From positions 151,964,001-152,028,000 of the forward strand of contig NC_086097.1 in the NCBI RefSeq assembly GCF_963921235.1: a stretch of DNA of 64,000 bases, in the 5' to 3' direction. Shown in pieces: positions 18,221 through 50,025 of this stretch (the stretch's first letter is position 1; the number at the start of each line of letters is the position of its first letter). Under the pieces are notes generated by a model, which was not told the DNA's origin, ran no database searches, and saw only the letters and a list, made by a program, of their open reading frames with translations. A program made the translations under genes and the position numbers. The stretch is from Mobula hypostoma (Eukaryota).

Positions 18221-18258
18221 CAGTCTACGTTTCGGGCCAAGACCCTCCGTCAGGACTA
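18221..18258 (-). ncRNA. Minimal type I hammerhead ribozyme motif of the Penelope terminus (core variant)
   Basis: Minus strand reads UAGUC-CUGACGGA-GGGUCUUGGCCC-GAAA-CGUA-GACUG: stem I, a CUGAnGA-like core with one change, stem II and GAAA. Confidence 0.65.
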
Positions 18259-18480
18259 ACAGAAGGAAGAGCTAGTAAGAGATTTGAAAGTGGGAGGGGG
18301 AGGGGGAGATGCAAAATGATAGGAGAAGACAGGAGGGGGAGGGATGGAGCCAAGCGCTGGACAGGTAATTGGCAAAAGGGGTATGAGAGGATCATGGGAC
18401 AGGAGGCCCAGGGAGAAGGAAAAGGGGGAGGGAGGGAAAACCCCAGAGGATGGGCAAGGGGTATAGTCAGAGGGAGAAAA

Positions 18481-18728
<248 letters not shown>

Positions 18729-18820
18729 TGTGTGTATATAAATAAATAACGGATGGGGTAAAGGGGGAGGTGGGGCATTAGCAGAAGTTAGAGAAGTCAA
18801 TGCTCATGCCATCAGGTTGG

Positions 18821-19226
18821 TGATTATTAGTAAGTACAGAAGCCAAAGGTATATGATATATCAATTTAATCCAAGATAATGAATTTTGGGCTAAAATTGA
18901 ATTTCTCAAAGATGTTAAATAAATATTCCCATTCAACTTTATCAAACGCCTTCTTGGCATCAAGCAAAATAACACATTCTGGAGTTTTAGATGAAGTATA
19001 TATAATGTTCATCAACCTCCTAATATTAAAATACAAATAATGATTTTAATAAATCCTGTCTGGTCATCAGAGCGAATTTGTGGCAATACATTTTCCAATC
19101 TAATTGCTAATATTTTGGAAAAACTTTTGGAGTCCTCATTTAACAAGGATATAGGTCTATATGATGCACATTCAGTGGTGTCTTTATCTTTTTTAGGAAT
19201 TAAAGAAATAGATGCTTCATAAAAAG
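18821..19226 (-). repeat. Inverted copy of the host L1 segment 19741-20149
   Basis: The reverse complement aligns end to end, with about 17 substitutions and 3 small indels by manual count. Confidence 0.95.
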
Positions 19227-22200: not shown

Positions 22201-23419
22201 ACTAATGTAATCCCGATCTCTCTATTATTATCATTGTTATGTTTATCAATTTGAAACTCAATAAAAAAGATTGAAAAAGGAAAGAGAATGAGATTCATGA
22301 ATATATTGTTTTCTGCTGTGTGCTAGGGTCAGGGACATCTTGAATTGAGTCCACACCATTCTGAAGTGGAAGGGTGAGTATCTAGAGGTAGTAGGCCATG
22401 TCGGAACCAATGACACGGTTAGAATGGGTGACGAGGTCCTGCAAAGTGAGTTCAGTGAGTTTGGTGCTAAGTTAAAGGACAGGACCCACAGGGTTGTGAT
22501 CTCAGGATTGCTACCATGCCACTTGTTAGTAAGGCCAGAAATAGGAAGATCATACAGTTTAATATACGGCTAACAAGTTGGTGCAGGAGGGAAGGCTTCA
22601 GATTTTTGGATCATTGGGCTCTCTTCCAGGGAAGATGGGTCCTGTACAGAAGGGACAGTTTGCAGGAGGGGGCTAATATCCAAGTGGGAAGGTTTGCTAG
22701 TGCTACACTGGTGGTGTGGTGTTAAGCCAAGTTTCAGGGAACTGGAGTGCCAGAACAGATAGTGAAGTGGTTGTGGAGAAAGTTGTTGTTAAACCTAGAT
22801 ACACATTTAGGAATCAAAAGATTGAGCATGGCTGGAGTAATGTTCAGAGCTGCATATATTTCAAAGCAAGGAGCACTGTAGGAAAGGTGAATGAACCTAG
22901 GGCATGGATCAGCATGTGGAATTATGACATTGTAGACATTAGTGAGACTTGGTTGCAGGAGGACTGACAGCTTACTGTTTTGGGGTTCTGTTGTGCTAGA
23001 CATGATAGAGTAGGAGGGATTAAGGGAGAGGGGTTGAATTACGAGTCAGGGAAAATGTCACGGCAGTGCTCAGTCAGAATAGACTGGAGAGCTTGTCTTG
23101 TGAAGCTTTATGGGTAGAACTGAGGAATGGGAAAAGTATGACCACATTAGTGGGATCTTATAGACCACCCAACAGCCCGATGGATTTAGAGGAGCAGATT
23201 TGTAGAGAGATCACAGACTGTTGCAAGAAATGTTGAGGTTGTGATACTAGATAATTTCAACTTTCTAGACTGGGACTTCCCATACTGTAAAAGGGCTGGA
23301 TAGGAAAGAGTTTGTCAAATATGTACACGCGGGACTCAAACCGCCATCGGGAGCCGCAGGCAGACATGCTGTAGTGCGTTTCGAACTACCCACTCAGGGT
23401 GGACCTTCCGGGGACAGTC

Positions 23420-23427
23420 TGACGTCA
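23420..23427. promoter_or_regulatory. CRE-type palindrome TGACGTCA in the 5' LTR (also at 27455-27462 in the 3' LTR)
   Basis: Exact motif in both LTRs; function untested. Confidence 0.4.
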
Positions 23428-23563
23428 CGTCTGCCCCGAGGGTCGCAAGGGCCCAAGGGAGGGGAGATTTAAGCACATGATTTTGAATCAGTAAAGGCAT
23501 TCTGAGTTCAGCTCTCTCTGCCTCCGTGTGTTTCTTTAGTAGCGCGTTTGCGCGCGACTACAT

Positions 23564-23578
23564 TGGTGACCCCGACGT
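23564..23578 (+). promoter_or_regulatory. Primer binding site complementary to the tRNA-Trp 3' end
   Basis: TGGTGACCCCGACGT lies 1 nt after the LTR-terminal CA. Confidence 0.9.
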
Positions 23579-26500
23579 TCCAGACGGCATCTGGAGCCAG
23601 CGACTCAGCGACCAGCCACGAGTTCGAGCAACTTGCACAGCGTGGTCTCTCTGAAGCTCCCGACTTTCTGGGCCACTCAGCCCCACGTTTGGTTCGAGCA
23701 GACTGAGGCCCAGTTCAATATCAGAGACATTACAGCTGACGCCACGCGGTACTCCTATGTGGTCAGCACGCTCGACCAGGAGACGGCAGGCCAGATCATC
23801 AACGTCCTACGCCAGCCACCAACGGAGGACAGGTACACTAAGCTTAAGGCGCTCCTGATCCGTACCTTCGGACTTTCTCGCCACGAACGGGCTGCACGGC
23901 TCTTACACATAGATGGCCTGGGCGACTGCATGCCATCCGAGCTCATAAATGATATGCTGGCGCTCATGGACAGCCATAAGCTGTGCCTTTTATTTGAACA
24001 GTTGTTCCTTGAGCAAATGCCAGAGGTCATTCGCCTCCTCCTCGCGAGTGAGGATTTCAGCGACCCATGCAGGGTCGCAGCTAAAGCAGACGTCCTTTGG
24101 CAGAGCAAGCAACGTGGAGCAGCCTCCAATGGCCTAGCCATCATCACGCGCCCCAACGCCCAGGCCCTGCAACCAAAGCTGTCGAGACCCACGTGGGAAA
24201 AAGGCGAAAGTTCGGAACAATGGTGTTTCTATCACCAAAGGTGGGGCTCAGGAGTGCGCCGCTGCCGTCCAACATGTGCTTTTCCTGGAAATGCTGGGGC
24301 CAGCAGTCGCTAATGGCTACGACGGCTGGCCACCGAGACAGCCTCCTGTACCTCTGGGACCGACATTCCGGGCAGCGCTTCCTGGTAGACACCAGGGCCG
24401 AAGTCAGCGTACTCCCCCCCTCGAACATGGACACTCGTAACGCAGTCCCAGGCCCCGAACTCACCACTGCAAATGGCACCAGTATTCGGACGTACGGCCT
24501 GCGAACTATCTCACTGCATTTCGGGTCCAGTCGTTTCACTTAGACTTTCACGTTGGCAGCGGTGTCACAGCCACTACTAGGGGCAGATTTCCTATGAGGC
24601 AACTACCTCCTGGTCGACCTAAAAGGCCGGCATTTGGTCCACGCCAAGATGTTCCAGACTTTCCAACTCGGAGAAGCCAAACTATTGGCCCGCCACCTGG
24701 ATTCCGTGACCCTCTCGGGTAACAAATTCGTCAGGGTGTTGGTGGAATTCCCCTCCATAGTCACCCCGCAGTTCTCCACGGCCGAGCCCAACCATGGCGT
24801 GCAGCACCACATCCCCATGCAAGGACCGCGCCGCTGCAGGCCTGAGCTCGCAGGCTCCCACCCGACAAGCTCCACCTCGCCAAGGAGGAGTTCCGTAAGA
24901 TGGAAGAGATGGGAATCGTACGCCGCTGAGACAGCCCATGGACATCCCTGCTGCACATGGTGCCCAAGTCCGCAGGAGGATGGAGGCCCTGCGGAGACTA
25001 CAGAAGACTCAACGACGCCACAATCGCCGACAGATACCCGGTACCCAACATCCAGGACTTCACGGCGAACCTGCACAGAGCGACCATCTTCTCAAAAATC
25101 GACCTGGTCAGGGGATACCATCAGATCCCAGTGCACCCCGACGACGTTCCCAAGACAGCCCTCATCACCCCGTTCAGCTTGCCTTTCAGTCTCAAGATGA
25201 GGCCCAAACTTTCCAAAGGCTCATATACTCGGTGGGATGTGGCCTGGATTTTGTTTTGATTTACTTGGATGATATCCTGGTGGCCAGCAGTTCGCACCAA
25301 AAGCACGTGGCACATTTTGCGCCAGCTCTGCCACCACCTGAGCGACCATGGACTGGCAATCAATCCAGCAAAGTGCCAGTTCGGGCTGACGGAGATCGAC
25401 TTCTTGGGCCACAGAGTCAACCGACATGGCGCAGTTCCCCGACCAGACAAGGTCCAGGCCATCCACCAATTCCCCAAGCCCAGCACGGTCAAGGGCCTGC
25501 AGGAGTTCGTAGGGATGGTCAACTTTTATCATCGGTTCGTGCCGGCGGTGACACGCGTCATGAGACCCTTGTTCAGCCTGGTGGCCGGCAAGGCCAAAGA
25601 AGTGGCACGGGACGCGGAGTCCACGGAGGCATTTGAGCAGGCCAAGGAGGCACTGGCAAAGGTGGCCCTCCTAGTGCACCCGAGAGTCGATGTACCCACG
25701 GCACTCACAGTCGACGCTTCCCACACGGCAGTCGGCGGAGTCCTGGAGCAGCTCGTCGAGGACCAGTGGTGACCACTCACTTTCTTCAGCCGGCACCTAC
25801 GGCCACCAGAATTCACCTCAGGGGCTCCAACTGGACAGCGCTTTCGACAGAGAGTTGCTAGCGCTCTACCCGGCTGTCTGGCATTTCCGGTACTTCCTCG
25901 AGGGAAGGGAGTTCACCCTGTATACAGACAAGCCCTTCACCTTCGCACTGGCCAAGGTATCGGACCCATGGTCGGCTCGGCAGCAGAGGCACCTGTCCTT
26001 TATTTCAGAATTCACCACGGACGTCCACCACATCGCAGGGAAGAACAACGTCGTCACTGACACACTGTCTCGCCCCTGCCTCCACTCAGTAGGCATATCG
26101 TCCTCAGGAATAGACTTCGCAGCACTGGCGGAAGCACAACGGTCGGACATCGAGATCCCAGCTTACTGTACCGCCGTTTCGGGCTCCAGTTGGAGGACGC
26201 CTCCATTGGCCTGGCAGTGGATCATCTCCTGTGCGACATGTCTACCGGCAAACTCCGACCCGTGGTACCAGCAGCATGGAGGCGCCGGGTGTTCGACACG
26301 CTGCACGACTTGGCCCACCCGTCCATCCAGGCGTCCATCAAGCTGGTAGCGGACAGATTCGTCTGGCAAGTTTTGCGCAAATAGGCCAGACATTAGGCCA
26401 GGACCTGCGTACACTGCCAGACCGCTGAAGTCCTGCGGCAGGTGAAGGCTCCCCTCTAGCAGTTCCAGCCCACGCACAGGAGGTTCCAACACATCCATGT

Positions 26501-29129
26501 GGACATCGTCGGCCCCCTGCCGGTCTCCCGGGGCACCAGCTATATCTTTACCATGGTAGACCGCTCGCAGACAGGTCCACTGAGTCCTGCACCAGGACGC
26601 TCATTGCAAACTGGAATGCTAGATTCCGCCTCCCAACGGACATCACCTCCAACAGAGGGGTGCAGTTCACGTCTGGTTTGTGGACAGCACTGGCGCAGCT
26701 CCTGGGCACCCAGCTGCATCACACCACAGTGTACCATCCCTAGTCCAACAGTTTGGTACAGCGATTTCACTGGCATCTCAAGTCAGCCCTGATGGCGTGC
26801 CTCAGGGGCCCCAACTGGACAGATGAGCTTCCCTGTGACCTACTGGGCATCCGCACAGCCCCCAAGGAGGACCTGGACACCTCCTCAGCGGAATTGGTCT
26901 ATGGCACCCCCTGACAGTCCCAGGTGAGTTCGTACCAGAGGCCCGATGTTCGGAAGAAACTCTAGAGGCAGTGCTAACAAGGGTGCAGGACAGGGTAGGG
27001 ACCCTGGCACAAATCCCAACCTCCAGGCATGATCCCACACCATTCTTCACCCCTAAAGACCTCCGAGACTGTGAGGGTGTATTTATTCATAGGGGCATGC
27101 ACAGATCACCTCTACAGTGGCCGTACAAGGGACCCTTCAAGGTGATCCAGCACAGCAGAACCACGTGTCGTGGAGGTGGGTGGCCGAGAAGAGACTTTTA
27201 CAGTGGACCACCTCAAACCAACGCACTTGGACATTGAGCAACCAGAGAGGGTACCCGCACCGCGCCAGCGAGGCTGGCCACCCACACAGACTGGGGGCTC
27301 CACTCCCTCAATGGACGTTTCTGGGGCCGGGGGGGGGGGAGGGTGGTGCAGCGGCCCGCACACGCAGGGCTTGAACCGCCATCGGGAGCCGCGGGCAGAC
27401 ACACGGTAGCGCGTTTGGAACTACCCGCTCGGGGCGGACCTTCTGGGGACAGTCTGACGTCACGTCTGCCCTGTGGGTCGCAGGGGCCCATGGGAGTGGA
27501 GATTTAAACACGCGATTTTGAATCAGTAAAGGCATTCTGAGTTCAGCTCTCTGCCTCCATGTGTTTCTTTAGTAGCACGTTTGCGCGCGACCACAGTACA
27601 ATATTATGAAGGGTACAGATAGGGTAAATACAAGCAGGCCTTTTCCACTGAGGTTGTGTGAGACTACTTACTAGAGGTCATGGGTTAAAGGTGAAAAATG
27701 AAATGTGTAAAGGGAACCTGGGCAGAACTTCTTCAGAAAGAGAGTGTTGAAGGTGTGGAACAAACTGCCAGCACAGTTTGTGGTAGATATGAGACTGATT
27801 TCAACATTTACAAGAAATTTAGATAAATACATAGATAAAAGAGCTATGGAGGCTATGATCTGGATGTAGGTCAATGGGGTTCGGTCAAGTAATTGTTTAG
27901 CACAGAGTGGATGGGCCAAAGAACTTGTTTCTGTGCTGTAGTGTTCTATGACTCTATGCTGAGAAGATGGTTCTTCAAGTGAATGAATTCTAGTACTATC
28001 AACATGGTGTCAGGATAAGACATCACCCATGTAAGTATGAAATGAGGTACAATTTATTCTCTGAAAGAATTGTGAATCTTTGGAATCCTCTATGCCAGAA
28101 AACAATGGAAATAGAATCAAATATTTCTAAGGCTGAGAAAGACTTTTAGACTTTGGAAGAATCGAATTAATCTGCCACATTCTCAAAGAAGAACAGAACA
28201 ATTTGAAGAGTCAAAAAGGTATGCCTGATCCCATTTCTTACATTAAATGCCCTTTCACATAATCTCATTCATTCTTCCTCACATGATTTTTCTTTCCACA
28301 TTAATTCATATGTTCATGTTATCTGTGTACATAGATGGACTATAGCTACATGTGCTAGAAGGAGAATACTTATTAAGATACATAAAGATAGAGCTATTAC
28401 CATACATTACCATGAAAATGAGAGAATTAATTACAATTATGTTGTGGAACTGTAATCAATATTGCATATATATTCTAATGGCATTTAAACAAAAATATAT
28501 TGCAGAGATACACTGGCCTTTTAGACATCAATAAATGAATTTTGGAAGTGTTACCAATAAATATGGCATCATTAGCACAATATGATGAACATTTTATTAA
28601 TAAAATCTGGAAAATATTTAATTTAAATTATATGGAGAGGTAATTAATAACATTCAACTGACTTTAATGGGATATAATTCATATTAAATCAAAGTAATAT
28701 TACTAGAATGATGCACATAACATTTTATTAATGGTATATTGTCAGCTTAATACGCTGAAATGATTAGCTGAAATAATATTCTCAAAATAATGCAACCTTT
28801 TCTTTTCCTCATCATATAAAGTTGCAAACCTTACAGGATATGGCATTTTCCTAGGAAACTAGATGGTGTTGAATTTGTTCTTCTAAAGTGGCTTTGTTTC
28901 TCTGTCACCACATCTCTAAGTTCTCGGTTCTGTCAAACTTGAGAACTTAAGTCGACGTGCCTGATTACTGCTTCGCCAGGAAACAGTCCAGAGACAGCCA
29001 GAAAAATCAGGTGCATTACTGTTTTAGATACTGCCTGGCAAAGAGATAGGTGCTATCAATTCACCAAGCCCAAGAACTGCAAGCGAGCTGTGGCTTCTAA
29101 TGTTAGTGCAATGAACCAGAATTGATTAG

Positions 29130-31340
29130 AGAGCTTAGAGTAAAAAAACCCTTGGGGAAAGTGATCATATTATGATCAAATTCATCCTGAAATTTGAAAA
29201 GGAGAAGTTAGAGGCAGGTGTGTCAGTATTACAGTGGAGTAAGGGGAATTACAGAGGCATGAGAGAGGAGTTGGCCAGAACTGATTGAAAAGAACACTGG
29301 CAGGCAGAGCTGCAACAGCTGGAATTTCTGGAAGCAATTTGGAAAACATAGAATATATACATACCAAAGAGGAAGAAATATTCTGAAGGAAAGATGTCAC
29401 AACCATAGCTAACAAGAGCAGTGAAAGCCAACGAGGAGGCATACACAAGAGAAAAGATTAATGGGAAGTTAGAGGATTGGGAAGCTTTTAAAAACCAACA
29501 GAAGGCAACTAAAAAAAGTCAATAAGATGATAAAGATGAGATGAGAAGTTAAACCAGGCAATAATATTAAAGAGGACACCAGAAGTTTCTACAGATACAT
29601 AAAGTGTAAAAGACAGACAAAAGTGGATATTGGACCATTGGAAAATGATGCTAGAGAGGTAGTAATGAGGGATAAGGAAATAGCAGATGAACTGAATAAG
29701 CCTTTTACATTATTCTTCACTGTAGAAGATTATAGAAGTTCCTGGTCTCAGGGTGTATAAAGTGTGGAAGTTATCATAACTTCCTTGGGGTTCTTGGGGT
29801 CTGAAGGTAGATAAGTCATCTGGACCTGATGGTGTACACCCCAGAGTTCTGAAAGAGGTGGCTGAAGATATCGTGGAGGCATTAGTAATGATCTTTCAAG
29901 AAGATCGGAAAATTCCAAATGTCACTCCACACTTCAAGAAGGCAGAGAGGCAGAAGAAAGGAAACTATAGCCCAGTTTGTCTGACCTCAGTGGTTGTGAA
30001 GATGTTGGATTTGGTTATTAAGTATGAGGTCTCTGTGTACGTGGATGCACATGGCAAAATTGGCCGTAGTCAGCATGGTTTCCTCAAGGGAAAATCTTGC
30101 CCGACAAATCTGTTGGAATTCGTTGAAGTAGTAACAAGCAGGATAGACAAAGGAGAATCGGTTGATGTTGTGTACTTAAATTTTCAGAAGGCCTTTGACA
30201 AGGTGTCACACATGAGGTTGCTTAACAAGCTATGAGTCATGGTATTACAGGCAATATTCTAGCATGGATAAAGCCGTGGCAAATTAGCAGGAGGCAAAGA
30301 GTGGAAATAAAGAAGCCTTTTCTGACTGGATGCTGTGACTACTGGTGTACCACAGAAGTCTGTGTTGGGACCGATTCTCTTTCCATTATATGTCAATGAT
30401 TTAGATGATGGAATTTGTGTCTTTGTTGCAAACGATATGAAGAGAGATGGAGGAGCAAATAGTTTTGAGGAAGTAGAGAGGCTACAGAAAGACTTGCAGC
30501 ACATACAGATGAGGAGAAATGCAAAGAAATAGCAGATGCAGTACAGTGTCGAGAATGTACGGTCATGCACTTTGGTAGAAGAAATGAAAGATTGACTGTT
30601 TGGAGAGAGAATACAAAATAACAGAAACAAAGGGACTTAGGAGTGCTTGTGCAGGATTCCCTAAAGGTTAATTTACAGGTCGAGTCTTTGGTGAGGGAAG
30701 GCAAATGCAATGTTAGCATTCATTTCAAGAGGACTAGAATATAAAAGCAAGGTTGAAAGTTTATAAAGTACTGGTGAGGCCTCACTTGGAGTATTGTGAT
30801 CAGGTTTGGGCCCATTATCTTGGAAAGGATGTGCTGAAACTGCAGAGCGTTCAAAGGAGGTTCATGACATGATTCCAGGATTGAATGGTTTGTCATTTGA
30901 AGAGTGTCGGATGGCTCTGGTCCTAGTATTCACTAGAATTCAGAAGAATGAGGGGTGACCTCATTGAAACCTGCCAAATGGTGAGAGATCTTGAAAGAGT
31001 GGATGTGGAGAGGACGTTTCCTATGGTGGGAGAGTCTAAGACCAAAGGACACAGCCTTAAAATAGAGGGTTGTCCTTTTAGAATGAAGATGAGGAGGAAT
31101 TTCTTTAGCCAGAGAGTGATGAATCTGTGGAATTCTTTGCCACTGGCAGCTGTGGAGACCAGATCTTTAAGTATATTTAAGGAAGAGGTTGATAGATTCT
31201 TGATTGATCAGGGCATGAAGGGATATGGGGAGAAGTCAGGAGACTGGGGATGAGAAGAAAATTGGATCAGCCATGATGAAATGGAGAAGCAGACTCAATG
31301 GGCCAAATGGCCTAATTCTGCTCCTATATCTTATGGTCTT
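29130..31340 (+). mobile_element. Decayed CR1 LINE (RT and 3' end)
   Basis: NYSPVCLTS, SQHGFLKGKSC, YLNFQKAFDKV, TGVPQKSVLGP and NFFSQRVMNLWNSLP motifs. CTTATGGTCTT tail. Confidence 0.93.
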
Positions 31341-31344
31341 AATG

Positions 31345-31480
31345 GTCAGAGCAGTTGGTGGGCTATTGGTAAACTTCTGCTCTTCTTCAAGATAAGGTCA
31401 TAAAATACTTAAAGTTTACTTGTGACAACAGAAGAAGCCTCAGTTTAAAATCTCAAACAAAAGACAGTGCTTCCAGAGAG
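31345..31480 (-). mobile_element. Deu-domain SINE relic
   Basis: ctgctcttcttc...gcctcagtttaaaatctc...aaagacagtgcttcc matches the antisense of the Deu core as recalled. Confidence 0.55.
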
Positions 31481-31789
31481 CCGGGCTAGATCAGTTGCGG
31501 AATCGACAAAATGCTCAGAGATTGGAGTAATTAAAAAAAGACTCCAAATTTTCATATCCTTTTAAATCTAACAGTCAACAGCTCAACATACTAATTTACA
31601 AGCATTTCTGTACTTATGGCTGTGAATAAGAAATAAGAATGCATACGTAACGACTGAAACTTTCATTACAGACTTTTTTTAAAAATAAAAATTTGCTGGT
31701 ATTCTTCAAAGTTAATCTCTTTCTAAAGTAGAATATCCAAAAGCAGTTAGTGGAGACACATTAATCTAAAACAGAACACAGAAGGCAGA

Positions 31790-32110
31790 ATATGAAACAG
31801 AAGTGTGTAGCACAGTACAGGCCCTTCACCCACGGTGTTGTACCGACTTTTTTTTTTTTAACATCCACCAAGATCAATCTAACCCTTTCCTCCCACATAG
31901 CCCTCCACTTTTCTTTCATTTATGTGCCTGTCTAGGAACTCCTAATATATCAGCTCCTTCCACCATCTCTGGCAGTGTTCTCCTGTCACCCACCACTTTG
32001 TGTAAAAAAAAAACACTTGCCTCTGACATTTCCCCTAAGCATTCCTCTGTTGACCTTAAGAGTATGTCTTCTGGAATTAGCCGTTACTGTCCTGCCCCAG
32101 GGATTTATCT
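31790..32110 (-). mobile_element. CR1 3' fragment
   Basis: Begins with the antisense CR1 terminus tagcacagtacaggccctt. Confidence 0.75.
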
Positions 32111-32280
32111 ATCTTAATGTTTATCAAAAGCACCAATGTTATCCTCAATCCTGAGGGATGCCTAAGGAAAAGACCAGGACATACCAGAAAACATAGGGCA
32201 TTATGTTACGCTGTGGGTACAATGGCAACTATTGAGGACTGGTAGATACAGGAGAGAATTTAATTTGCTAAGTATCGAAA

Positions 32281-32588
32281 GGTTGGCGCGTGGCCAAGTG
32301 GTTAAGGTGTTCGTCTAGTGATCTGAAGGTTGCTAGTTCGAGCCTTGGCTGAGGCAGCATATTGTGTCCTTGAGCAAGGCACTTAACCACACACTGCTCT
32401 GCGATGACACCGGTGCCATGCTGTATGGGTCCTAATGCCCTTCCCTTGGACAACATTGGTGGTGTGGAGAGGGGAGACTTGCAGCATGGGCAACTGCCGG
32501 TCTTCCATACAACCTTTCCCAGGCCTGCGCCCTGGAAACCTTCCAAGGCGCAAATCCCTGGTCTCACGAGACTAACTGATGCCTATAT
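32281..32588 (+). mobile_element. tRNA-derived SINE with CORE-like domain
   Basis: Pol III A box TGGCCAAGTGG (32291-32301), B box GTTCGAGCC (32336-32344), then tgtgtccttgagcaaggcacttaacc. Confidence 0.85.
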
Positions 32589-32879
32589 AGTAAATCAAAA
32601 GGCTGAATTGCTTAACTTTTCTGTGCTTTGACTTTATTCCGGCCGTTGTTGTCACTGCACAATAAATAATGTGGAAGGGTTACTTATTTTCTATTGAAAT
32701 AATATTTTTATTAAACAGTATAGTGCTGGCTATAAATGACACATGTCAACTTTAGATTCAATGAGAACACACAATATTCATGTTCAGCTCAATGTTACAT
32801 ATCATCCTGACGATATGTACACAGTGGCCATTTTATTAGGTACTTCGGGTACTTAATATTGTGGCCACTGAGTATATGC

Positions 32880-33065
32880 CACCATTCCTTCATTGTCACT
32901 GGGCTTAAATATTGGAACTACCTCCACAATGATGTTGTATGTACCGTTAACAGAGGACTGCAGCAGATGATGAAAGCAGCTTAATACCACTTTCTGAAAG
33001 GCAGTTAGAATGAACTTATGAATGCTGGCCTTGCTGCCAAAGTTTAGATCCCAAGAAACAAACGA
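32880..33065 (+). mobile_element. Ancient CR1-group 3' end
   Basis: ggaactacctcc...ggactgcagcag...atgctggccttgc tail pattern. Confidence 0.55.
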
Positions 33066-33825
33066 GTAAACAGAAAGCAGAGAGAGTGCCAAGGCCGTTC
33101 TAGTGGGGATTGGAGCTGCAGTGGAACTCTACTGCCATCACTGTGCATGCGGACACAGCTTTGCTGCGAGCTAAACAACTTTTCAAAAATCACCTGAGAT
33201 GGAAGCATTCTTTAGGTTTTTAATGAGACTTCTTTTTATTTCTGTGAAATGATATTGCTGTTTCACAGGCAGATAAAGAGTGGATGAAGATGTATTTTTT
33301 TCTACCATTTGCTCCAAATTAGAATAAAAGCTTACTTGCGCAGGAAGTAGTACAAAAAACAGCTTACAGTGATGTTCATTCAAAATGATCTATGCCTCTA
33401 GAAGCTAGAACACTCCCTGTCTGGCATGTCAAACTTAACTACAGAAACTACAGGTCAAATAATCATTTCACTAAGTCTTCGACAAAGAAGAATAATCTCA
33501 GAATGGTCTTGACAAAAGCCTAACTACATCGTCTTTAACCATTCTCACTTCAAAAACGTCAGCCTTGATGACATACAGCAATTGTTTGTGAAAATTGTCC
33601 AGTGAGCACAGAGCTGACATGAAGTGTACCCAGAATGATGACTGGGTAAGTTTCCTCTGAAGTGCATTGTGCCTTCTTTATACGTCCTCTGACTTGCAGT
33701 AGTCCCTCAGAGTCAAGGAACGGGCAGTGTTTACTAAGTAGACTTTGTTTTGGGAGAGATTCCTGCCTTGTGATGCACTGCACTTCCTTGCAGAAGTCTG
33801 TCTTTGAACAACAGAGCAGGAACAG

Positions 33826-34598
33826 TGGATCCTTGACTTCCTAGCTGAAAGGTCACAATTTGTGCAGATCAGAAATAACATCTCCACCTTGCTGATTGGA
33901 AGCAAGATCTCTACCTTGCCAACAATCAACACTGGTGCACCTCAGGGACATGTGCTTACCCACTACTCTACTCTCTCTACACCCATGACTGTGTGGCTGG
34001 GTGCAGCTAAAATGCCATCTATAAATTTGCTGACAATACAGCTATTGTTGACAGAATTTCAGATGGTGATGAGAGGGCGTACAGGAGCGAGGTATATCAG
34101 CTATTTGACTGGGGTTGCAGCAACAGCCTTGAACACAACATTAGTAAGACTAAAGAACTGACTGTGGATTTCAGAAAGGGTAGGATGAGGTAACACCCCA
34201 GTCCTGAAAGAGGGATCAGAAGTGGAATGAGTGAGCAATTCCAAGTTCCTTGGTGTCAATATCTGTGAGGATCTATTCTCGACCCAACATATCGAGGCTA
34301 CGACAAAGAAGGCATGTCAATGGCTACATTTCATGAGGAGTTTGAGGAGATTTGGTATGTCACCAAAGACACTCATCAATTTCGACAGATGTACCATGGC
34401 GGGCATCCTAATTGGCAGCATCATGGTCTGGTATGGTGGGGTGGGGGGGGGGGGCGGTAGAAGGCTGGCTACTGCACAGGATTGAAATAAGCTGCTGAGA
34501 CTTAACAATCTAGTCAGCTCCATCACGGGCACTAGCCACTGTAGTATTCAGGATATTTTCAAGGAACGATGCCTCAAAAAAGGCAGCAGCAATTATTT
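33826..34598 (+). mobile_element. Rex1/Babar-type RT fragment within BEL (duplicated at 40017-40789)
   Basis: WILDFL, NTGAPQGHVL, YKFADNT and FMRSLRRFGMS motifs. Confidence 0.85.
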
Positions 34599-34749
34599 AG
34601 AAGTAAGTGGGAATTAGAAAAAGCATTCTAACCTTTGCATGACCTCAGTATTGTTGGGCATGATCCTATGTGCTGTGAGAGTAGACTGTGCCAAGATGTC
34701 TTGTGATTATTTTAGCATGCTGACTGCTTCTTCTGTTAGAAAATGATTA

Positions 34750-35687
34750 AAACATAGAAAACATACAACACAATATAGGCCCTTCAGCCCACAAAGCTGT
34801 GTCGAACATGTCCCTACCTTAGAACTACCTAGGCTTTACCCATAGCCCTCTATTTGTCCAAGCTCCATGTAGCCACCTAGGAGTCTCTTAAAAAACCCTA
34901 TCGTTTCTGCCCCCATCACCGCCACCAGCAGCCCATTCCATGCACTCACCACTCTCTGCATAAAAAACTTACCCCTGACATCTCCTCTGTATCTTCTTCC
35001 AAGCACCTTAAAACTATGCCCTCTTGTGCTAGCCATTTCAGCCCTGGGGAAAAGCCTCTGACTATCCACATGATCAATGCCTCTCATCATCTTATACACC
35101 TCTATCAAGTCAACTCTCATCCTCTGTCGCTCCAAGGAGAAAAGACCGAGTTCTCACAACATATCCTTATAAGGCATGCTCCCCAAACCAGGCAACGTCC
35201 TTGTAAATCTCCTCTACACCCTTTTTATGGTGTCCACGTACTTCCTATAGTGAGGCAACCAGAATTGAGCACAGTACTCCAAGTGGGGTCTGACCAGGGT
35301 CCTATATAGCTGCAACATTACCTCTCTGCTCTTAAACTCAATCCCACGATTGACGAAGGCCAATGCACCGTATGCCTTCTTAACCACACAGTTAACCTGC
35401 ATAGCAGCTTTGAGTGTCCTATGGACTCAGACCCCAGGATCTCCCTGATCCTCCACACTGCCAAGAGTCTTATCATTAATACTACATTCTACCATCATAT
35501 TTGACCTACCAAAATTAACCACCTCACACTTACCTGGGTTGAACTCCATCTGATACTTCTCAGCCCAGTTTTGCATCCTATCAATGTCCCGCTGTAAACT
35601 CTGACAGCTCTCCACACTATCCACAACACCCCCAACTTTTGTCATCAGCAAATTTACTAACCCATTCCTTCACTTCCTCATCCAGGT
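34750..35687 (-). mobile_element. Duplicated 3' part of the CR1 at 40941-43960, cut off at the L1 junction
   Basis: Identical to 40941-41878. Stops just upstream of KFADD, where the L1 begins. Confidence 0.93.
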
Positions 35688-38600
35688 TCCGGAGACTTAA
35701 AGCACAAATTTTATTTTTACAAGAGACCCATGTACGGAGGGGGGACAGACTACGTTTTTTCAAATTCTGGAAGGGACAACAATTTCATTCGAACTCCAAT
35801 GCTAAGATTCGAGGCGTCTCTATTTTTATAGACTCCTCAGTTACTTTTATACAACAGGATATTATCTCTGATCCGAATGGTAGATTTTTATTGGTTAGTG
35901 GTTTACTATTTAATAAAAAAGTAGTTTTGGTTAATGTTTATGCTCCTAATATGGATTGTCCGGAATTTTATAAATCATTGTTTGATCAGTTTCCGAATTT
36001 GAACGAGTTTTCATTGATTTGGGGCGGAGATCTTAATACCTGTTTATCTCCAGCTTTGGACCGTTCGGCTCCTTTACGGACTTTACCTAATAAATCTGCA
36101 AATTTGATTAATTTTTTCCTTTCTGATTCTGGGTCGACGGACATTTGGCGTTTTCTGCATCCTCAGGAAAAAGATTTTTCCTTTTTTTCACATGTTTATC
36201 ATTCCTATTCAAGAATTGATTATTTTTTCATTGATTCTCGTCTCATTCCTTCAGTGATTAAATGTGATTATGATTCTATAACCATTTCGGATCATGCTCC
36301 ACTTAAGCTTTCTATTAAAATTATGGCCAATATACCAAACAATAGACAATGGCGTTTTAATTCGCTGTTGCTTCAGGACTCGGACTTTGTTAATTTTATG
36401 AATGAACAGATTGAGCTTTTTTTTACAATTAACCATACAGAAGATATTTCGGTTAACACTCTTTGGGACACTTTTAAAGCCTATATTCGGGGTCAGATTA
36501 TTTCGTATTCCGTTGCTTTGAGGAAGAAACAGAAGCAGGAGGAGATGGCAATTGTGGACAAGATTAAAGAAATTGATAAGAAATATGTTATGGCTCCTTC
36601 TGAGGAGCTATACAAACAAAGAACTGAACTTCAAATGGAACACAGTTTACTACTCTCGTCCTCGATTGTAAACCAATTAAAGAAAACAAGAAGTGATTTT
36701 TATGTTCACAGTGATAAAATTGGCAAGCTGCTGGCTAATCAATTGAAATCTAATTATGTTAAATCTCAAATCAATCAGATTTATAACCAAAATGATCGAT
36801 TGATATTGGATCATGTGGGGATTAATCAAACCTTTTGTGATTTTTATTCTTCTTTATATCAATCAGAGTCTCCTCGAGATTCTAAATATATGAATGATTT
36901 TTTAGATAAGTTAGACTTCCCTCAGATTTCACAGGATATGTCTTCTTTATTAGATACTTCCATTACAATGGATGAGATTAAGAATGTTATTTTTTCTATG
37001 AATCTGGGGAAAGCTCCTGGCCCTGATGGGTTTACCGTTGAATTTTATAAATGTTTTGCTTCTTTATTGATTCCTTGGCTCTATAAGGTTTTTGAGGCTT
37101 CTTTGAAACTTGGTAAACTTCCGGAATCTTTTAATAGAGCATCAATTTCTTTAATACTAAAGAAGGATAAAGACCCTGCTCAATGTGCATCTTATAGACC
37201 AATATCTTTATTAAATGTTGATTCTAAAGTTTTTTCTAAGTTATTAGCAAATAGACTAGAAAAAGTACTTCCTTCTATTATTTCGGAAGACCAAACGGGT
37301 TTTATTAAAGGTCGTTACTCTTTTTATAATATTCGTACATTGTTAAATATCGTTTATACTCCCTCACAAAATGTTCCTGAGTGTGTTATTTCTTTAGATG
37401 CCGAGAAAGCTTTTGATAGAGTAGAATGGCCTTATTTATTTAAGGTGCTTGAAATGTTTAATTTTAGCTTGAAATTTATATCCTGGATTAAACTGTTATA
37501 TCACTCCCCTGTAGCCTCGGTTCGTACTAACTCCTTAAACTCACCTTTTTTTCCTCTCTTTCGTGGTACTCGACAAGGCTGTCCTCTTAGTCCCCTATTA
37601 TTTGATATTGCATTAGAACCTCTTGCAATTGCTATTCGAGAATCTTCAAATATTACTGGGATAACTCGGGGATTAAAGTCCCATAAATTATCACTCTATG
37701 CTGATGATTTACTTTTATATATTTCTAATCCTGAGAGATCCATTCCTGCTGTTTTAGAGTTATTAGCACAATTTGGTCTTTTCTCAGGTTATAAATTAAA
37801 TCTTAGTAAGAGTGAACTTTTTCCGATTAATAAACATCTTCCCTTATATTATAAATTTCCATTTAAATTGATTAATAATTACTTTTCATATCTTGGGATT
37901 AAAATTACTTGTAAACATAAAGATTTATTTAAGACTAACTTTTTACCATTAATAGACCATATTACTCAACTTTCATCTAAATGGTTTCCCTTATATTTAA
38001 CTTTGATTGGTCGTATTAATGCAGTTAAGATGTTTTTTTTGCCAAAATTTTTATATGTGTTTCAGGCATTACCAATTTTCGTTCCTAAATCTTTTTTTGA
38101 TAAAGTTGACTCTAAAATTTCTTCATTTATTTGGCAGAATAAGAATCCGAGACTGGGTAAAATACATTTACAGAAAGCTAAGAGAGATGGAGGTTTAGCA
38201 TTACCTAACTTTAGATTTTATTATTGGGCTATTAATATTCGACATATGAAATTTTGGTTACTTGACCGGGACATACTATCTATTCCTAAATGGGTAGCAT
38301 TGGAATTACAATCTGTTCAGGGTTATACACTTGGTTCTATTTTAGGTTCCTCTCTTCCTTTTGATTCGAAACGCCTTAAGCAGGTCTCTAACCCGATAGT
38401 TAAATATGCTTTGCGCATTTGGTTTCAATTCAGAAAATTTTTTGATCTTAATCAATTCGGGTTAGCGATTCCTATTTTAGGTAACATATTTTTTCCTCCC
38501 TCTTTTACGGATCGCGCTTTTCAAACTTGGAAGACTAAGGGTATTTTACGGTTTTTGGATTTATTTTTAGATGGTTCCCTTATGTCTTTTGAACAATTAT

Positions 38601-39382
38601 CTAATAAATATAACTTATCAAGAATACATTTTTTTAGATATTTACAAGTTAGAAATTTCCTAAGTACTATACTTTCTTCCTTTCCAATGCTTCCTCCTAT
38701 ATATATTTTAGATTCGATAATTAACCTTAATCCATGTCAGAAAGGTGCATCGGCTATGATTTATAATATTATTATGAAACTTAGGAAAGCTCCATTTGAT
38801 AAGATTAGGGTAGATTGGGAACAGGAATTGGGGCTTACCATTTCTGTGGATGATTGGGGGCAGATTTTACAATTAGTTAATACTTCCTCTATTTGTGCTA
38901 AACATTCCCTAATTCAATTTAAAGTGGTTCATAGAGCACATATGTCCAAAGATAAGTTAGCGCGTTTTTACTCGCATATTAATCCTTTCTGTGATAGATG
39001 TTCGGGGCAGATAGCCTCTTTAACTCATATGTTTTGGTCTTGCCCTACTTTGGAAACTTTTTGGAGAGATATTTTCAATATTATTTCTAAGGTATTAAAT
39101 ATAGATATCTCTCCTCACCCTATTACTGCTATCTTTGGACTACCTAAAATTTCTAGTAATCTTTCCCCTTCAGCCCGTAGAATGATTGCATTTCTTACTT
39201 TAATGGCGAAAAGATGTATTTTACAACATTGGAAAGAGCTTAATGCTCCAACTACCTTTTTTTGGTTTTCTCAGACGATTTTATGTTTGAATCTGGAGAA
39301 AATTAGAAGTAATCTTTATGATTCTTCATTTAAATTTGAACAGATTTGGGGACCTTTTATTCGATATTTTCATTTAATGTAA
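35687..39382 (+). CDS. L1 ORF2 (APE endonuclease, RT, CCHC knuckle), uninterrupted but lacking its N-terminus and start codon
   Basis: About 1,231 open codons with [71 protein letters not shown] and CDRCSGQIASLTHMFWSC. The first 16 residues of the called ORF (TTG at 35639) come from antisense CR1. Confidence 0.93.
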   Translation, partial: FRRLKAQILFLQETHVRRGDRLRFFKFWKGQQFHSNSNAKIRGVSIFIDSSVTFIQQDIISDPNGRFLLVSGLLFNKKVVLVNVYAPNMDCPEFYKSLFDQFPNLNEFSLIWGGDLNTCLSPALDRSAPLRTLPNKSANLINFFLSDSGSTDIWRFLHPQEKDFSFFSHVYHSYSRIDYFFIDSRLIPSVIKCDYDSITISDHAPLKLSIKIMANIPNNRQWRFNSLLLQDSDFVNFMNEQIELFFTINHTEDISVNTLWDTFKAYIRGQIISYSVALRKKQKQEEMAIVDKIKEIDKKYVMAPSEELYKQRTELQMEHSLLLSSSIVNQLKKTRSDFYVHSDKIGKLLANQLKSNYVKSQINQIYNQNDRLILDHVGINQTFCDFYSSLYQSESPRDSKYMNDFLDKLDFPQISQDMSSLLDTSITMDEIKNVIFSMNLGKAPGPDGFTVEFYKCFASLLIPWLYKVFEASLKLGKLPESFNRASISLILKKDKDPAQCASYRPISLLNVDSKVFSKLLANRLEKVLPSIISEDQTGFIKGRYSFYNIRTLLNIVYTPSQNVPECVISLDAEKAFDRVEWPYLFKVLEMFNFSLKFISWIKLLYHSPVASVRTNSLNSPFFPLFRGTRQGCPLSPLLFDIALEPLAIAIRESSNITGITRGLKSHKLSLYADDLLLYISNPERSIPAVLELLAQFGLFSGYKLNLSKSELFPINKHLPLYYKFPFKLINNYFSYLGIKITCKHKDLFKTNFLPLIDHITQLSSKWFPLYLTLIGRINAVKMFFLPKFLYVFQALPIFVPKSFFDKVDSKISSFIWQNKNPRLGKIHLQKAKRDGGLALPNFRFYYWAINIRHMKFWLLDRDILSIPKWVALELQSVQGYTLGSILGSSLPFDSKRLKQVSNPIVKYALRIWFQFRKFFDLNQFGLAIPILGNIFFPPSFTDRAFQTWKTKGILRFLDLFLDGSLMSFEQLSNKYNLSRIHFFRYLQVRNFLSTILSSFPMLPPIYILDSIINLNPCQKGASAMIYNIIMKLRKAPFDKIRVDWEQELGLTISVDDWGQILQLVNTSSICAKHSLIQFKVVHRAHMSKDKLARFYSHINPFCDRCSGQIASLTHMFWSCPTLETFWRDIFNIISKVLNIDISPHPITAIFGLPKISSNLSPSARRMIAFLTLMAKRCILQHWKELNAPTTFFWFSQTILCLNLEKIRSNLYDSSFKFEQIWGPFIRYFHLM

Positions 39383-39742
39383 TATTTACCCTTCTTGTTT
39401 TTTTTTCACTGTTTTAATGGAGGTCGGGATTGAGGACGTGATTTTAAGTTTAACTCTGTTTGGTTTCAAGTTAGCCCATTGCTTTGCTTTGCTTTTAGTT
39501 AGTTGCACGGTGGGTTTTTTTTTTGGGGTTTTTTTTTCTTTTTTTTTCCATTGATATATATAAAATCTAGTATACTATTATGTTATCTTGCTTTCTTATG
39601 CTTAAATTACATTGTTTGTAGTATTTTCTTTTTGGTATTGTTATCTTTTGGAATTTTATTATACTTTAACATTGTATTAATGTTTATATGGCTTACCTTT
39701 TTTGTATACTTACTCAATAAAAAGATTTAAAAAGAAAGAAAG
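35688..39742 (+). mobile_element. Young 5'-truncated L1 LINE (4,055 bp)
   Basis: Open ORF2, T-rich 3' UTR, AATAAA at 39716-39721 and tail AAAAAGAAAGAAAG. Confidence 0.96.
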
Positions 39743-41878
39743 AAAAACGTCAGCCTTGATGACATACAGCAATTGTTTGTGAAAATTGTCCAGTGAGCAC
39801 AGAGCTGACATGAAGTGTACCCAGAATGATGACTGGGTAAGTTTCCTCTGAAGTGCATTGTGCCTTCTTTATACGTCCTCTGACTTGCAGTAGTCCCTCA
39901 GAGTCAAGGAACGGGCAGTGTTTACTAAGTAGACTTTGTTTTGGGAGAGATTCCTGCCTTGTGATGCACTGCACTTCCTTGCAGAAGTCTGTCTTTGAAC
40001 AACAGAGCAGGAACAGTGGATCCTTGACTTCCTAGCTGAAAGGTCACAATTTGTGCAGATCAGAAATAACATCTCCACCTTGCTGATTGGAAGCAAGATC
40101 TCTACCTTGCCAACAATCAACACTGGTGCACCTCAGGGACATGTGCTTACCCACTACTCTACTCTCTCTACACCCATGACTGTGTGGCTGGGTGCAGCTA
40201 AAATGCCATCTATAAATTTGCTGACAATACAGCTATTGTTGACAGAATTTCAGATGGTGATGAGAGGGCGTACAGGAGCGAGGTATATCAGCTATTTGAC
40301 TGGGGTTGCAGCAACAGCCTTGAACACAACATTAGTAAGACTAAAGAACTGACTGTGGATTTCAGAAAGGGTAGGATGAGGTAACACCCCAGTCCTGAAA
40401 GAGGGATCAGAAGTGGAATGAGTGAGCAATTCCAAGTTCCTTGGTGTCAATATCTGTGAGGATCTATTCTCGACCCAACATATCGAGGCTACGACAAAGA
40501 AGGCATGTCAATGGCTACATTTCATGAGGAGTTTGAGGAGATTTGGTATGTCACCAAAGACACTCATCAATTTCGACAGATGTACCATGGCGGGCATCCT
40601 AATTGGCAGCATCATGGTCTGGTATGGTGGGGTGGGGGGGGGGGGCGGTAGAAGGCTGGCTACTGCACAGGATTGAAATAAGCTGCTGAGACTTAACAAT
40701 CTAGTCAGCTCCATCACGGGCACTAGCCACTGTAGTATTCAGGATATTTTCAAGGAACGATGCCTCAAAAAAGGCAGCAGCAATTATTTAGAAGTAAGTG
40801 GGAATTAGAAAAAGCATTCTAACCTTTGCATGACCTCAGTATTGTTGGGCATGATCCTATGTGCTGTGAGAGTAGACTGTGCCAAGATGTCTTGTGATTA
40901 TTTTAGCATGCTGACTGCTTCTTCTGTTAGAAAATGATTAAAACATAGAAAACATACAACACAATATAGGCCCTTCAGCCCACAAAGCTGTGTCGAACAT
41001 GTCCCTACCTTAGAACTACCTAGGCTTTACCCATAGCCCTCTATTTGTCCAAGCTCCATGTAGCCACCTAGGAGTCTCTTAAAAAACCCTATCGTTTCTG
41101 CCCCCATCACCGCCACCAGCAGCCCATTCCATGCACTCACCACTCTCTGCATAAAAAACTTACCCCTGACATCTCCTCTGTATCTTCTTCCAAGCACCTT
41201 AAAACTATGCCCTCTTGTGCTAGCCATTTCAGCCCTGGGGAAAAGCCTCTGACTATCCACATGATCAATGCCTCTCATCATCTTATACACCTCTATCAAG
41301 TCAACTCTCATCCTCTGTCGCTCCAAGGAGAAAAGACCGAGTTCTCACAACATATCCTTATAAGGCATGCTCCCCAAACCAGGCAACGTCCTTGTAAATC
41401 TCCTCTACACCCTTTTTATGGTGTCCACGTACTTCCTATAGTGAGGCAACCAGAATTGAGCACAGTACTCCAAGTGGGGTCTGACCAGGGTCCTATATAG
41501 CTGCAACATTACCTCTCTGCTCTTAAACTCAATCCCACGATTGACGAAGGCCAATGCACCGTATGCCTTCTTAACCACACAGTTAACCTGCATAGCAGCT
41601 TTGAGTGTCCTATGGACTCAGACCCCAGGATCTCCCTGATCCTCCACACTGCCAAGAGTCTTATCATTAATACTACATTCTACCATCATATTTGACCTAC
41701 CAAAATTAACCACCTCACACTTACCTGGGTTGAACTCCATCTGATACTTCTCAGCCCAGTTTTGCATCCTATCAATGTCCCGCTGTAAACTCTGACAGCT
41801 CTCCACACTATCCACAACACCCCCAACTTTTGTCATCAGCAAATTTACTAACCCATTCCTTCACTTCCTCATCCAGGT
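39743..41878 (+). repeat. Direct duplication, copy 2 (2,136 bp)
   Basis: Starts aaaaacgtcagcc directly after the L1 tail, ends catccaggt, and continues seamlessly into the rest of the CR1. Confidence 0.97.
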
Positions 41879-43960
41879 CATTTATAAAAATCACGAAGAG
41901 TAGGGGTCCCAGAACAGATCCTTGAGGCACACCACTGGTCACCGTCCTCCATGCAGAATATGACCCATCTACAACCACTCTTTGCCTTCTGTTGGCAAAC
42001 CAGATCTGGTTTCACAAAGCAAGGTCCCCTTGGATCCCATGCCTCCTTACTTTCTCAATAAGCCTTGCATGGGGTACCTTATCAAATGCCTTGCTGAAAT
42101 CCATATACACTACATCTACGGCTCTATCTTCATCAATGAGCTTAGTCACATTCTCAAAAAATTCATTCAGGCTCATAAGGCACGACCTGCCTTTCACAAA
42201 GCCATGCTGATTATTCCTAATCATATTATGCCTCTCCAAATGTTCATAAATCCTATCTCTCAGGATCTTCTCCATCAGCTTACCAACCACTGAAGTAAGA
42301 TGCACTGGTCTATAATTTCCTGGGCTATGTCTACTCCCTTTCTTGAATAAGGAAACAACATCTGCCACCCTCCAATCCTCCAGAACCTCTCATGTCCCCA
42401 TTGATGATGGAAAGATCATCGCCAGAGGCTCAGCAATCTCCTCCCTGGGTTACATCCCATCCGGTCCTGGTGACTTATCCAACTTGATGCTTTCCAAAAG
42501 CTCCAGCACATCCTCTTTCTTAATATCTACATTCTCAAGCTTTCCAGTCCACTGCAAGTCATCTCTACAATTGTCAAGATCCTTTTCAGTAGCAAATACT
42601 GATGCAAAATATTCATTAAGTACCTCCGCTATTTCCTCCTGTTCCGTACACACTTTTCCATTGTCACACTTGATTGGTCCTATTCTCTCACTTCTTATCC
42701 TCTTGCTCTTCACATACTTGTCGAATGCCTTGGCGTTGTCCTTAATCCTGTCTGCCAAGGCCTTCTCATGGCCCCTTCTGGCTCTCCTAATTTTATTCTT
42801 AAAGCTCCTTCCTATGAGCCTCATTATCTTCTAGATTCATATCATTACCTAGTTTTTTTGAACCATTCGTCAGCTCTTTTTTTCTTCTTGACTAGATTTA
42901 CAACAGCCTTTGTATACCGCAGATCTTGTACCCTACCATCCTTTCAATGACTCATTCGAACGTACCTACTCAGAACCCCACGCAAATATCCCCTGAACGT
43001 TTGCCACATTTCTTCAGTAGGTTTCCCTGAGAACATGTTTCCAATTTATGCTTCCAAGTTCCTGCCTGATAGCCTCATAGTTCCCCTTACTCCAATACAT
43101 TTCCCTAACTTGTCTTTTCCTATCCCTCTCCAATGCCATTGTAAAGGAGATAGAATTGTGATCACCATCTCCAAAATGCTCTCCCACTGAGAGCCCTGAC
43201 ACCCATGTTCATTTCCCAATACCAGATCAGTACAGCCTCTCTTCTTGTAGGCTTATCTACATATTGTGTCAAGAAACCTTCCTGAGCACACCTACAAACT
43301 CCACCTCATCTAAACCCCTCATTCTAGGGAGATGCCTATCAATATTTGGGAAATTAAAATCTCCCATCACAACAACCCTGTTATTATTACTCCTTTCCAG
43401 AATTTGTCTCCCTCTCTGCTCCTCGATGTCCTTATTACTATTGGGTGGTCTATAAAAAACACCCGATAGTGTTATTGACCCCTTCCTATTCCTAACTTCC
43501 ACCCACAGAGACTCCATAGACAAACCATCCATGACTTCCTCCTTTTCTGCAGCCATGGCACTATCTCTGATCAGCAGTGCCACGCCCCCACCTCTTTTGC
43601 CTCCCTCCCTGTCCTTTCTGAAACATCTAAAGCCTAGCACTTGAAGTAGCCATTTCTGCCCCTGCTCCATCAAAGTCTCTGTAATGACCACATCATAGCA
43701 CCAAGTGCTGATCCATGCTCTAAGCTTATCCGCTTTTTTCATGATACTCCTCGCACTAAAATAGACACATCTCAAACCATTGGACTGAGCGCATCCCTTC
43801 TCTATCACCTGCCTATACTCCCTTTCGCACTGTCTTGAAGCTTTCTTTATTTGTGAGCCAACCTCCCTTTCCTCTGTCACTTCAGTTTGGTTCCCACCCC
43901 CCAGAAATTCTAGTTTAAGCTCTCCCCAATAGCCTTAGCAAACCCTCCCGCCAGGATATT
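40941..43960 (-). mobile_element. CR1 LINE (endonuclease + RT, disrupted) inserted in the BEL RT just after YVDDGL
   Basis: ORFs 43269-43880, 42450-42824 and 42012-42368 carry CR1 motifs. Antisense TTTCTATG tail at 40941. Confidence 0.93.
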
Positions 43961-47105: not shown

Positions 47106-47650
47106 GGGGTGTATGGGGTGTCAGGGAGGGGTAGCACCTCTGGTGGGGGAACATGTCACGTCCTTTTCAAGGCAGTTAGTCCAACTTTGGTCCCCACCTG
47201 GCACTCAACTCTCAGCTGTAGCTCCCCGTAGCTGTTTGCATGCGACAGCGGCCACACCCGAGGCAACGGCTTCGACAAGCCGGCTAAACCAGGTGAAGGT
47301 AACTCTCAAACCCTCGGTGAGATAAGGGAGTTTTCTATCCCAGCATGTGAAGACAGACTCCGGCAGATTGAGCGGACGAGACCAAAGGTCCAATGGTCAA
47401 GGCCGCAGTCTCTGCAAACATCGTGGAACGTGTAGAGTAGGACAAGACACAGAAGACATCCTGGTCATCCACTGTGCCTAGTCCCACCTCCAGTCGTCTC
47501 GATTGTCTTGCCACTGGATCCAGATGGGAATTGGGAAGAGAGAGTGAGGCTAATGCTGCGCAACTCTCCCTCACTTAAATCTAAACCATGCACTAATCTC
47601 AACACAATAATAGTGTCGAGGTCCTCAACGCTGACAATGGATGAACACAT
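47106..47650 (+). mobile_element. Non-autonomous RTE-related short element inserted in the BEL 5' LTR
   Basis: GC-richer ~550-bp block absent from the 3' LTR. Resembles RTE 5' UTR motifs (caggtgaaggta...caaaccctcggtgag). Family call is from memory. Confidence 0.55.
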
Positions 47651-47974
47651 GCAGTAAGATTAATAACTTCTCAAAAATACTGAAGGAAGTTTCTTCTAGG
47701 TTTTTAATTAGATCGGTTTTCTTTCTTCAGTTATTTCTGTGAAGAGATATTGCTGTTTCAAGAGTAGACGAAGAGTGGATGGAGACATATTCCTTTCAAC
47801 TGTGCACTTCAAATTAGAATAAAAGCTAAACTGCACAGGAAGTGGTACAAGAACAATTTACGTATAGGAAGTGATGTTCATACAAAATGAACTGTGCTTC
47901 TACAGTCCAGAACAGGAACTAAATGTTCATTGTAATTTGATCTTATCACTAAACATATCTTTACCTTTCCCACC

Positions 47975-49914: not shown

Positions 49915-50025
49915 ATAATAGAAACATAGAAAACCTACAGCACAATACAGGCCCTTTGGCCCACAAAGCTGTGCCGAACATGTCCTTACCTTAGAAACTA
50001 CCTAGGGTTACCCATAGCCCTCTAT
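49915..50025 (-). mobile_element. Short CR1 3' terminus
   Basis: Same terminus as at 34750 and 54875. Confidence 0.85.

Follow-up and report, generated by a model that had tools for sequence, protein, structure and literature searches.

The locus considered here raises the question of how a young L1 element came to stand between two identical, kilobase-long copies of the same host segment (A), and whether this A-L1-A arrangement exists in the animal, was produced by the L1 itself as a very long target-site duplication (TSD), or arose in another way. It lies in a window of 64,000 nucleotides, the whole stretch of DNA that was analyzed, and had been picked out in an earlier note made from the letters alone.

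Layout of the duplication and its empty site

Self-comparison of the window showed identity of the two copies of A at 2,136 of 2,136 positions with an offset of 6,191, the identity stopping precisely at the limits given in Table 1; the A-L1-A layout with a perfect duplication was thereby confirmed, including its ends. The window is without an N gap, and, apart from a microsatellite, no further dispersed exact repeat reached 40 bp among its top offsets. After in silico removal of the L1 and one A, the minus-strand CR1, whose 3' part makes up the last ~940 bp of A, ran without indels over the right boundary when aligned with a sister CR1 at 54876-56570, which identifies A as host DNA from which nothing was lost on the CR1 side. 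Direct identical host repeats abut both ends of the insert, and a loss-free empty site is demonstrated for the CR1 side.

The earlier note had described A as a mosaic of BEL, Rex and CR1 debris and had expected the empty allele to restore a continuous CR1 and a continuous BEL. The CR1 part of both statements stood, while the labels BEL and Rex found no confirmation by the tools used: the left-hand frame of A, which looks BEL-like by its motifs, gave no relevant Pfam match and none of its 564 candidates was homologous, and the middle piece ('Rex') gave only a weak match to PF09004. The other copy of the BEL-labelled piece within the window (47650-47939) has a match on the left side of the nick only. 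No exon was found in A.

Three simple readings of A were rejected. It is not an LTR, as it starts with AAAAAC and ends with CAGGT instead of TG...CA, CR1 homology crosses its right boundary and the interior is a LINE; its single-copy depth in a second organism (organism B, see below) also counts against an LTR. The view of A as host repeat debris is supported. A 3' transduction does not fit, since the second copy is not followed by a tail and no source L1 is present upstream. An older 2,136-bp A-A duplication, entered later by an L1 with zero TSD, would require insertion at the exact position.

Two further repeat structures of the window are recorded here as separate observations. The segments 49922-50025, 34750-34853 and 54876-54977 are ends of elements of one CR1 family, 87-90% alike and with a common terminus, one of which is inside A. 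A degenerate LTR retrotransposon with 238-bp LTRs of 88.7% identity and with matches to DUF7041, RNase H and, weakly, RT occupies 23325-27595.

Table 1. Coordinates of the duplicated segment, the inserted element and the sites discussed at its junctions
Feature	Position	Strand	Description
Inferred priming site	33546..33557	+	top C/AAAAA; bottom 5'-TTTTT/GA; L1-endonuclease-type
Copy 1 of A	33552..35687	+	debris of old retroelements (2,136 bp)
Look-alike of the 16-base flank (33536-33551) on the left of the priming site	35658..35676	+	7 exact bases plus gapped extension
Young 5'-truncated fish-type L1	35688..39742	+	4,055 bp; ORF2 until 39382, 3' UTR, AATAAA, (AAAG)n-like tail
Copy 2 of A	39743..41878	+	identical to copy 1; starts at the tail junction and continues into the intact CR1
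Second endonuclease-like site	41879..41890	+	palindromic TTTATAAA and, after it, an A5 run; 2-7 bases beyond the right end of A

The inserted element and its junctions

The ORF2 of the insert is open over 1,231 codons and contains an N-terminally cut Exo_endo_phos domain (PF03372, E 1.4e-7) followed in the same ORF by RVT_1 (PF00078, E 1.1e-38); a zf-RVT match reached 25.5 bits, which is below its cut-off of 27.5, and the CxxC...H...C pattern is visible in the translation. Residues 7-1203 are colinear with residues 38-1230 of the human ORF2p, including the C-terminal region (E 4.3e-179), as compared to only about 1e-24 for R2 proteins, and the nearest named matches are fish proteins annotated as 'LINE-1 reverse transcriptase-like' and a Hypanus sabinus model with 70% identity; a myliobatiform ray is the probable host. 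Judged by its sequence, the insert is an L1-type APE LINE in a broad sense that includes L1 proper and the Tx1 group. Its 3' end consists, in this order, of a T-rich 3' UTR, AATAAA and the A-rich tail. According to the alignment to 38 homologues, the N-terminus is short by ~27-40 residues (range 23-51), the 5' cut falling within ORF2, so the copy is 5'-truncated and was dead on arrival. The first base of the codon at the 5' junction belongs to A; this codon reads F, where the homologues have L (35/38) or I (3/38); at the protein level, a 5' microhomology of 0 or 1 base therefore fits equally well. The open ORF2 and the absence of differences between the copies of A indicate that the insertion and the duplication are both very recent, in agreement with the young age proposed before; by the rule of three (0 differences in 2,136 bp) the divergence between the copies would be bounded at about 0.14%.

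The L1 family seems to have undergone a burst in the organism that we call A, its near-identical copies numbering at least about a thousand. One 93-bp L1 contig had about 1,030 times the single-copy depth, and the summed depth of the five 5' L1 bins was ~28-fold higher in organism A than in organism B, as compared to a 1.3-fold difference in the CR1 bins (runs X1, X4 and X6; all these values are contig-based and rough). A search of metagenomes produced no exact match to the L1 tail word, and none of 131 pattern matches to the family was confirmed by tblastn. The older L1 of the window (17684-22283) does have the 6-bp TSD ascribed to it, GAGAAT being present at both ends (17677 and 22284), but, as it is merely 67% identical to the young L1, this TSD says little about the young family. 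The older element itself contains, at 18152-19306, a composite insert bounded by the 8-bp repeat ACTAAGAG and consisting of a SINE-like piece with a microsatellite, an inverted 410-bp copy of L1 sequence from close by (18821-19226 being the reverse of 19741-20149 at 94.6%) and an inverted 28-bp copy of its own start; it looks like a local capture of proximal DNA during insertion or repair.

At the 3' junction, the tail of the young L1 joins AAAAAC at 39743, the first base of A, which bears out the proposal that it joins the start of A at an endonuclease-type site (cttc/AAAAAc). The motif TTTT/ga is given as a potential ORF2p target in section 8 of bioRxiv 2024.12.14.628481. Two clues are present around the other end of A, both of them noticed post hoc. 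When the 20-base sequence on the left of the nick was compared with the 57.8-kb in silico empty allele, its best match proved to end at 35676, 11 bases short of the 5' junction; null trials gave such a look-alike 2, 2, 19 and 11 times per 4,000 under four scorings, and at a rate of 0.9% or less for the same nick within this CR1. The A5 run of the second endonuclease-like site begins 7 bases right of the A end; an A5 start lies within 10 bases downstream of 1.8% of positions by chance and Y/AAAA of 4.3%. In run X6 of organism B, two contigs overlap by 28 bases (33542-33569) at the very position of the priming site. This overlap is plainly explained by a 32-bp word that a paralogue has in common with the site, the alternative being an independent variant at the same site.

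Depth over the duplicated segment

Logan contigs of runs X1, X2 and X4, all from sample S1 of organism A, and of run X6 from organism B were compared with 31000-39800, using 25 of the 32 listed contigs (18 from S1 and 7 from X6) and leaving out the seven that lay inside the L1. The word share of 30000-35760 was 0.66-0.72 in four runs of one organism A sample and about 0.4 in four organism B runs; runs X9-X23, whose shares were small or zero, were left out and do not count as evidence. All 18 unique-sequence contigs of S1 were free of letters differing from the window, which makes it possible that S1 is the assembled individual; as such it suits a test for an assembly artefact and carries no population information.

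The depth of S1 over A relative to the flank was 1.43-1.44 in a joint fit and 1.23, 1.58 and 1.53 in the individual runs. When normalized per run, all five S1 contigs lying wholly in A were at 1.21-1.75 and all ten flank contigs at 0.73-1.15, the three mixed contigs implying scattered ratios of 2.06, 1.39 and 1.17. Organism B was flat over A (0.96; segments 0.91-0.99). The depth check proposed in the earlier note thus produced a gain of about 1.44-fold in S1, expressed as contig depth, which is not equivalent to copy number, the contigs in A being placed in old repeats and those of the same run not being independent. Summed depth bins were not used for the copy number of A because paralogues are added into them. 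In simulations assuming Poisson coverage, run with 150-bp and with 15-kb reads (the read type of the runs is not on record), the observed ratio was reached in none of 600 trials without duplication. With both alleles duplicated, none of 600 trials came down to this ratio, for either read length, and one duplicated allele gave mean ratios of 1.46 and 1.57. Most simply, this would mean three copies of A per diploid genome: one A-L1-A allele over an empty allele.

Unbroken contigs over position 33552 were present in all three S1 runs (X1 32560-33888, X2 32560-33884 and X4 33370-33888) and count against a duplication, since an unsimplified graph should branch at this point if A is duplicated. Logan contigs are, according to the available part of their description, SPAdes-like and involve a lossy simplification. 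Neither a tail-to-A contig, nor an A-to-L1 contig, nor a joint from 39742 to 33552 was among the 15 of 668 joints and 32 of 355,294 pieces that were listed. Assemblers may prune a short link of low depth beside a high-copy repeat, which would explain both observations. No information comes from the loose ends at 35687 that read into the right flank, as the CR1 is multi-copy. Supported indirectly by the depth, the A-L1-A arrangement probably reflects a real, heterozygous allele.

Origin of the duplication and its relation to known systems

With a probability of roughly 60%, the L1 insertion and the 2,136-bp duplication resulted from one recent retrotransposition event, probably on one of the two chromosomes; the coinciding breakpoints and the zero divergence make such a one-event origin likely. 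The arms of an L1 target are usually joined over a distance of 5-20 bases, which is also the usual TSD length. In the favored scenario, ORF2p would nick the bottom strand at 33551/33552 and reverse transcription from this nick would make a cDNA of 4.05 kb, but the upstream arm would not be joined at the usual distance: most likely, it would invade the sister chromatid, copy 2,136 bases and then be linked by end joining to the cDNA 3' end, a break-induced-replication route that has been proposed for the human cases of 1-10 kb. The same product sequence would also result from a second-strand nick made far away and followed by fill-in, and the two routes are indistinguishable here. Of the earlier reading, which placed the priming at 33552 and the resolution of the 5' end far downstream, the first part agrees with the TPRT-type 3' junction, and the route of the 5' resolution is what we infer.

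The look-alike and the second endonuclease-like site are left unexplained by this model and point to different cut positions. Both find a place in a two-break exchange, in which the break at 33552 primes the cDNA and a break of the sister chromatid near 35677-35695, whether cut by the same endonuclease or directed there by the look-alike, supplies the upstream arm, so that one chromatid would gain the duplication and its sister a deletion. We regard this as unlikely, yet worth keeping in view: a good bottom-strand endonuclease-like site is present 7 bases right of the A end (1.8-4.3% by chance), the look-alike ends 11 bases left of the 5' junction, a canonical stagger length (null 0.05-0.9%), and an exchange between paired L1-induced breaks, with trimming of 4-5 bp, is described for human translocations and inversions (bioRxiv 2024.12.14.628481). 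However, both clues are post hoc and differ in cut position, it is less economical to assume that both sisters broke within 2.1 kb of each other, and the 1-10 kb duplications are ascribed by the same source to a single break. An assembly artefact, i.e. an A that is single-copy on each chromosome and was duplicated by the assembler, for example through a haplotype switch within the high-copy L1, is improbable. It would leave the depth ratio at 1.0 instead of 1.44, a value unmatched by any of the 600 null simulations per read length, and it has to face the flat depth in organism B, the absence of an N gap and the clean TPRT features of the 3' junction; the 100% identity of the two copies, the contigs running over 33552 in 3/3 S1 runs with no junction contig among those listed and the very high copy number of the family are the observations in its favor.

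The remaining alternatives separate the duplication from the insertion. Recombination after insertion, either as an unequal exchange between two same-family L1s located 2.1 kb apart on different alleles or as a template switch of an L1 tail, from an element already present at 35688, to the 33552 A-run on the empty homologue, also predicts a depth of 1.5x; a separate insertion could have started from the endonuclease-like site 7 bases beyond the right end of A, and a thousand or more near-identical family copies are at hand. It nevertheless needs two rare coincidences, as opposed to long TSDs in a few percent of cultured-cell insertions, and over 2,136 bp at least one difference between two haplotypes would usually be expected. 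Moreover, in the available part of PMC12350158, L1-L1 recombination in 1,019 humans amounts to 219 deletions and 1 insertion, and we consider this origin quite improbable. Hardly probable at all is a microhomology-mediated tandem duplication coming first (unit 33552-35676, junction in the 7-bp shared word) and an L1 inserting later at the new junction, the insertion being extended by 11 bases copied from the second unit. This would make direct use of the look-alike, and the new junction would recreate a C/AAAAA site, but insertion at the exact site soon afterwards (0 differences) and a templated 11-base extension would both be required, and a normal TSD is absent.

Returning to the favored one-event origin, a thousand or more near-identical L1 copies combined with a long-TSD rate of a few percent would make cases like this one expected, and the kilobase duplication is most likely a rare outcome for this family, not its normal habit. 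It is very doubtful that the family, after a burst that followed its host's split from a close relative, routinely duplicates kilobases in the germline with the far end set by a look-alike of the priming flank and a normal 11-base stagger; if true, LINE insertion would lead to segmental duplication along a sequence-guided route.

Kilobase-long L1 target duplications are likely within reach of a natural vertebrate germline. The present case should be without direct functional effect, as A holds repeat debris as far as found, and perfect repeats of 2.1 kb should favor a precise loss of the insertion by recombination. With its fresh copies numbering about a thousand or more, the family could serve to measure how frequent large TSDs are in nature and what junction rules they follow, both of which bear on the completion of the second strand in TPRT.

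Comparison with known systems indicates that the surprise expressed about the size of the duplication was overstated, since kilobase TSDs have been published for human L1, for a zebrafish LINE and in tumors. Engineered human L1 produced TSDs of 5 bp-5.3 kb (median 1,495 bp) in NER-deficient cells and of up to 1.6 kb in complemented cells, while in HeLa cells up to 10% of the events had TSDs above 100 bp (PMC5223499, citing the earlier large-TSD work of Gilbert 2002/2005 and Symer 2002). A distant second nick was suggested there for the NER-deficient cells, and exon duplication by large TSDs was already stated (Servant et al., PMC5223499), which anticipates the idea of an exon-copying route, for which A, in which no exon was found, offers no example. 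The likeness to the ray locus consists in an endonuclease-site 3' junction together with direct repeats of hundreds to thousands of bases; those insertions, however, were made de novo in transfected human cells, in contrast to a natural, apparently constitutional allele of a fish-type element. L1-linked tandem duplications of 1-10 kb occur in tumors and L1-expressing clones, with a break-induced-replication route proposed (bioRxiv 10.1101/2024.12.14.628481), and an L1-bridged tandem duplication in tumors reaches 22.6 Mb (PCAWG, PMC7058536); these are somatic and human, while the ray case is probably germline and from a cartilaginous fish.

Among fish elements, the zebrafish LINE ZfL2-2 produced a 1,228-bp TSD in 1 of 25 wild-type inserts in chicken DT40 cells, which makes it a fish LINE with a kilobase TSD, yet of the L2 type and in a heterologous cell line, unlike the natural allele of the ray (PMC2666801). 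Human HERV-K (HML-2) offers natural, polymorphic insertions with abnormally long TSDs of 111 and 250 bp, but these are integrase-based and about ten times shorter than the ray duplication (PMC5488345). Human TSDs are typical in the available part of PMC12350158, with a median of 21 bp and no kilobase case found there, and a structure of the A-L1-A type is not described in the corresponding parts of PMC2671141 or bioRxiv 2024.11.22.624925. No natural germline kilobase TSD of a LINE in a fish was found in the literature covered, which lies mostly outside subscription papers. On its testable features, the A-L1-A locus thus likely belongs to the known L1 large-TSD class and does not represent a new mechanism; what is new is its host, a cartilaginous fish, and its apparently inherited state.
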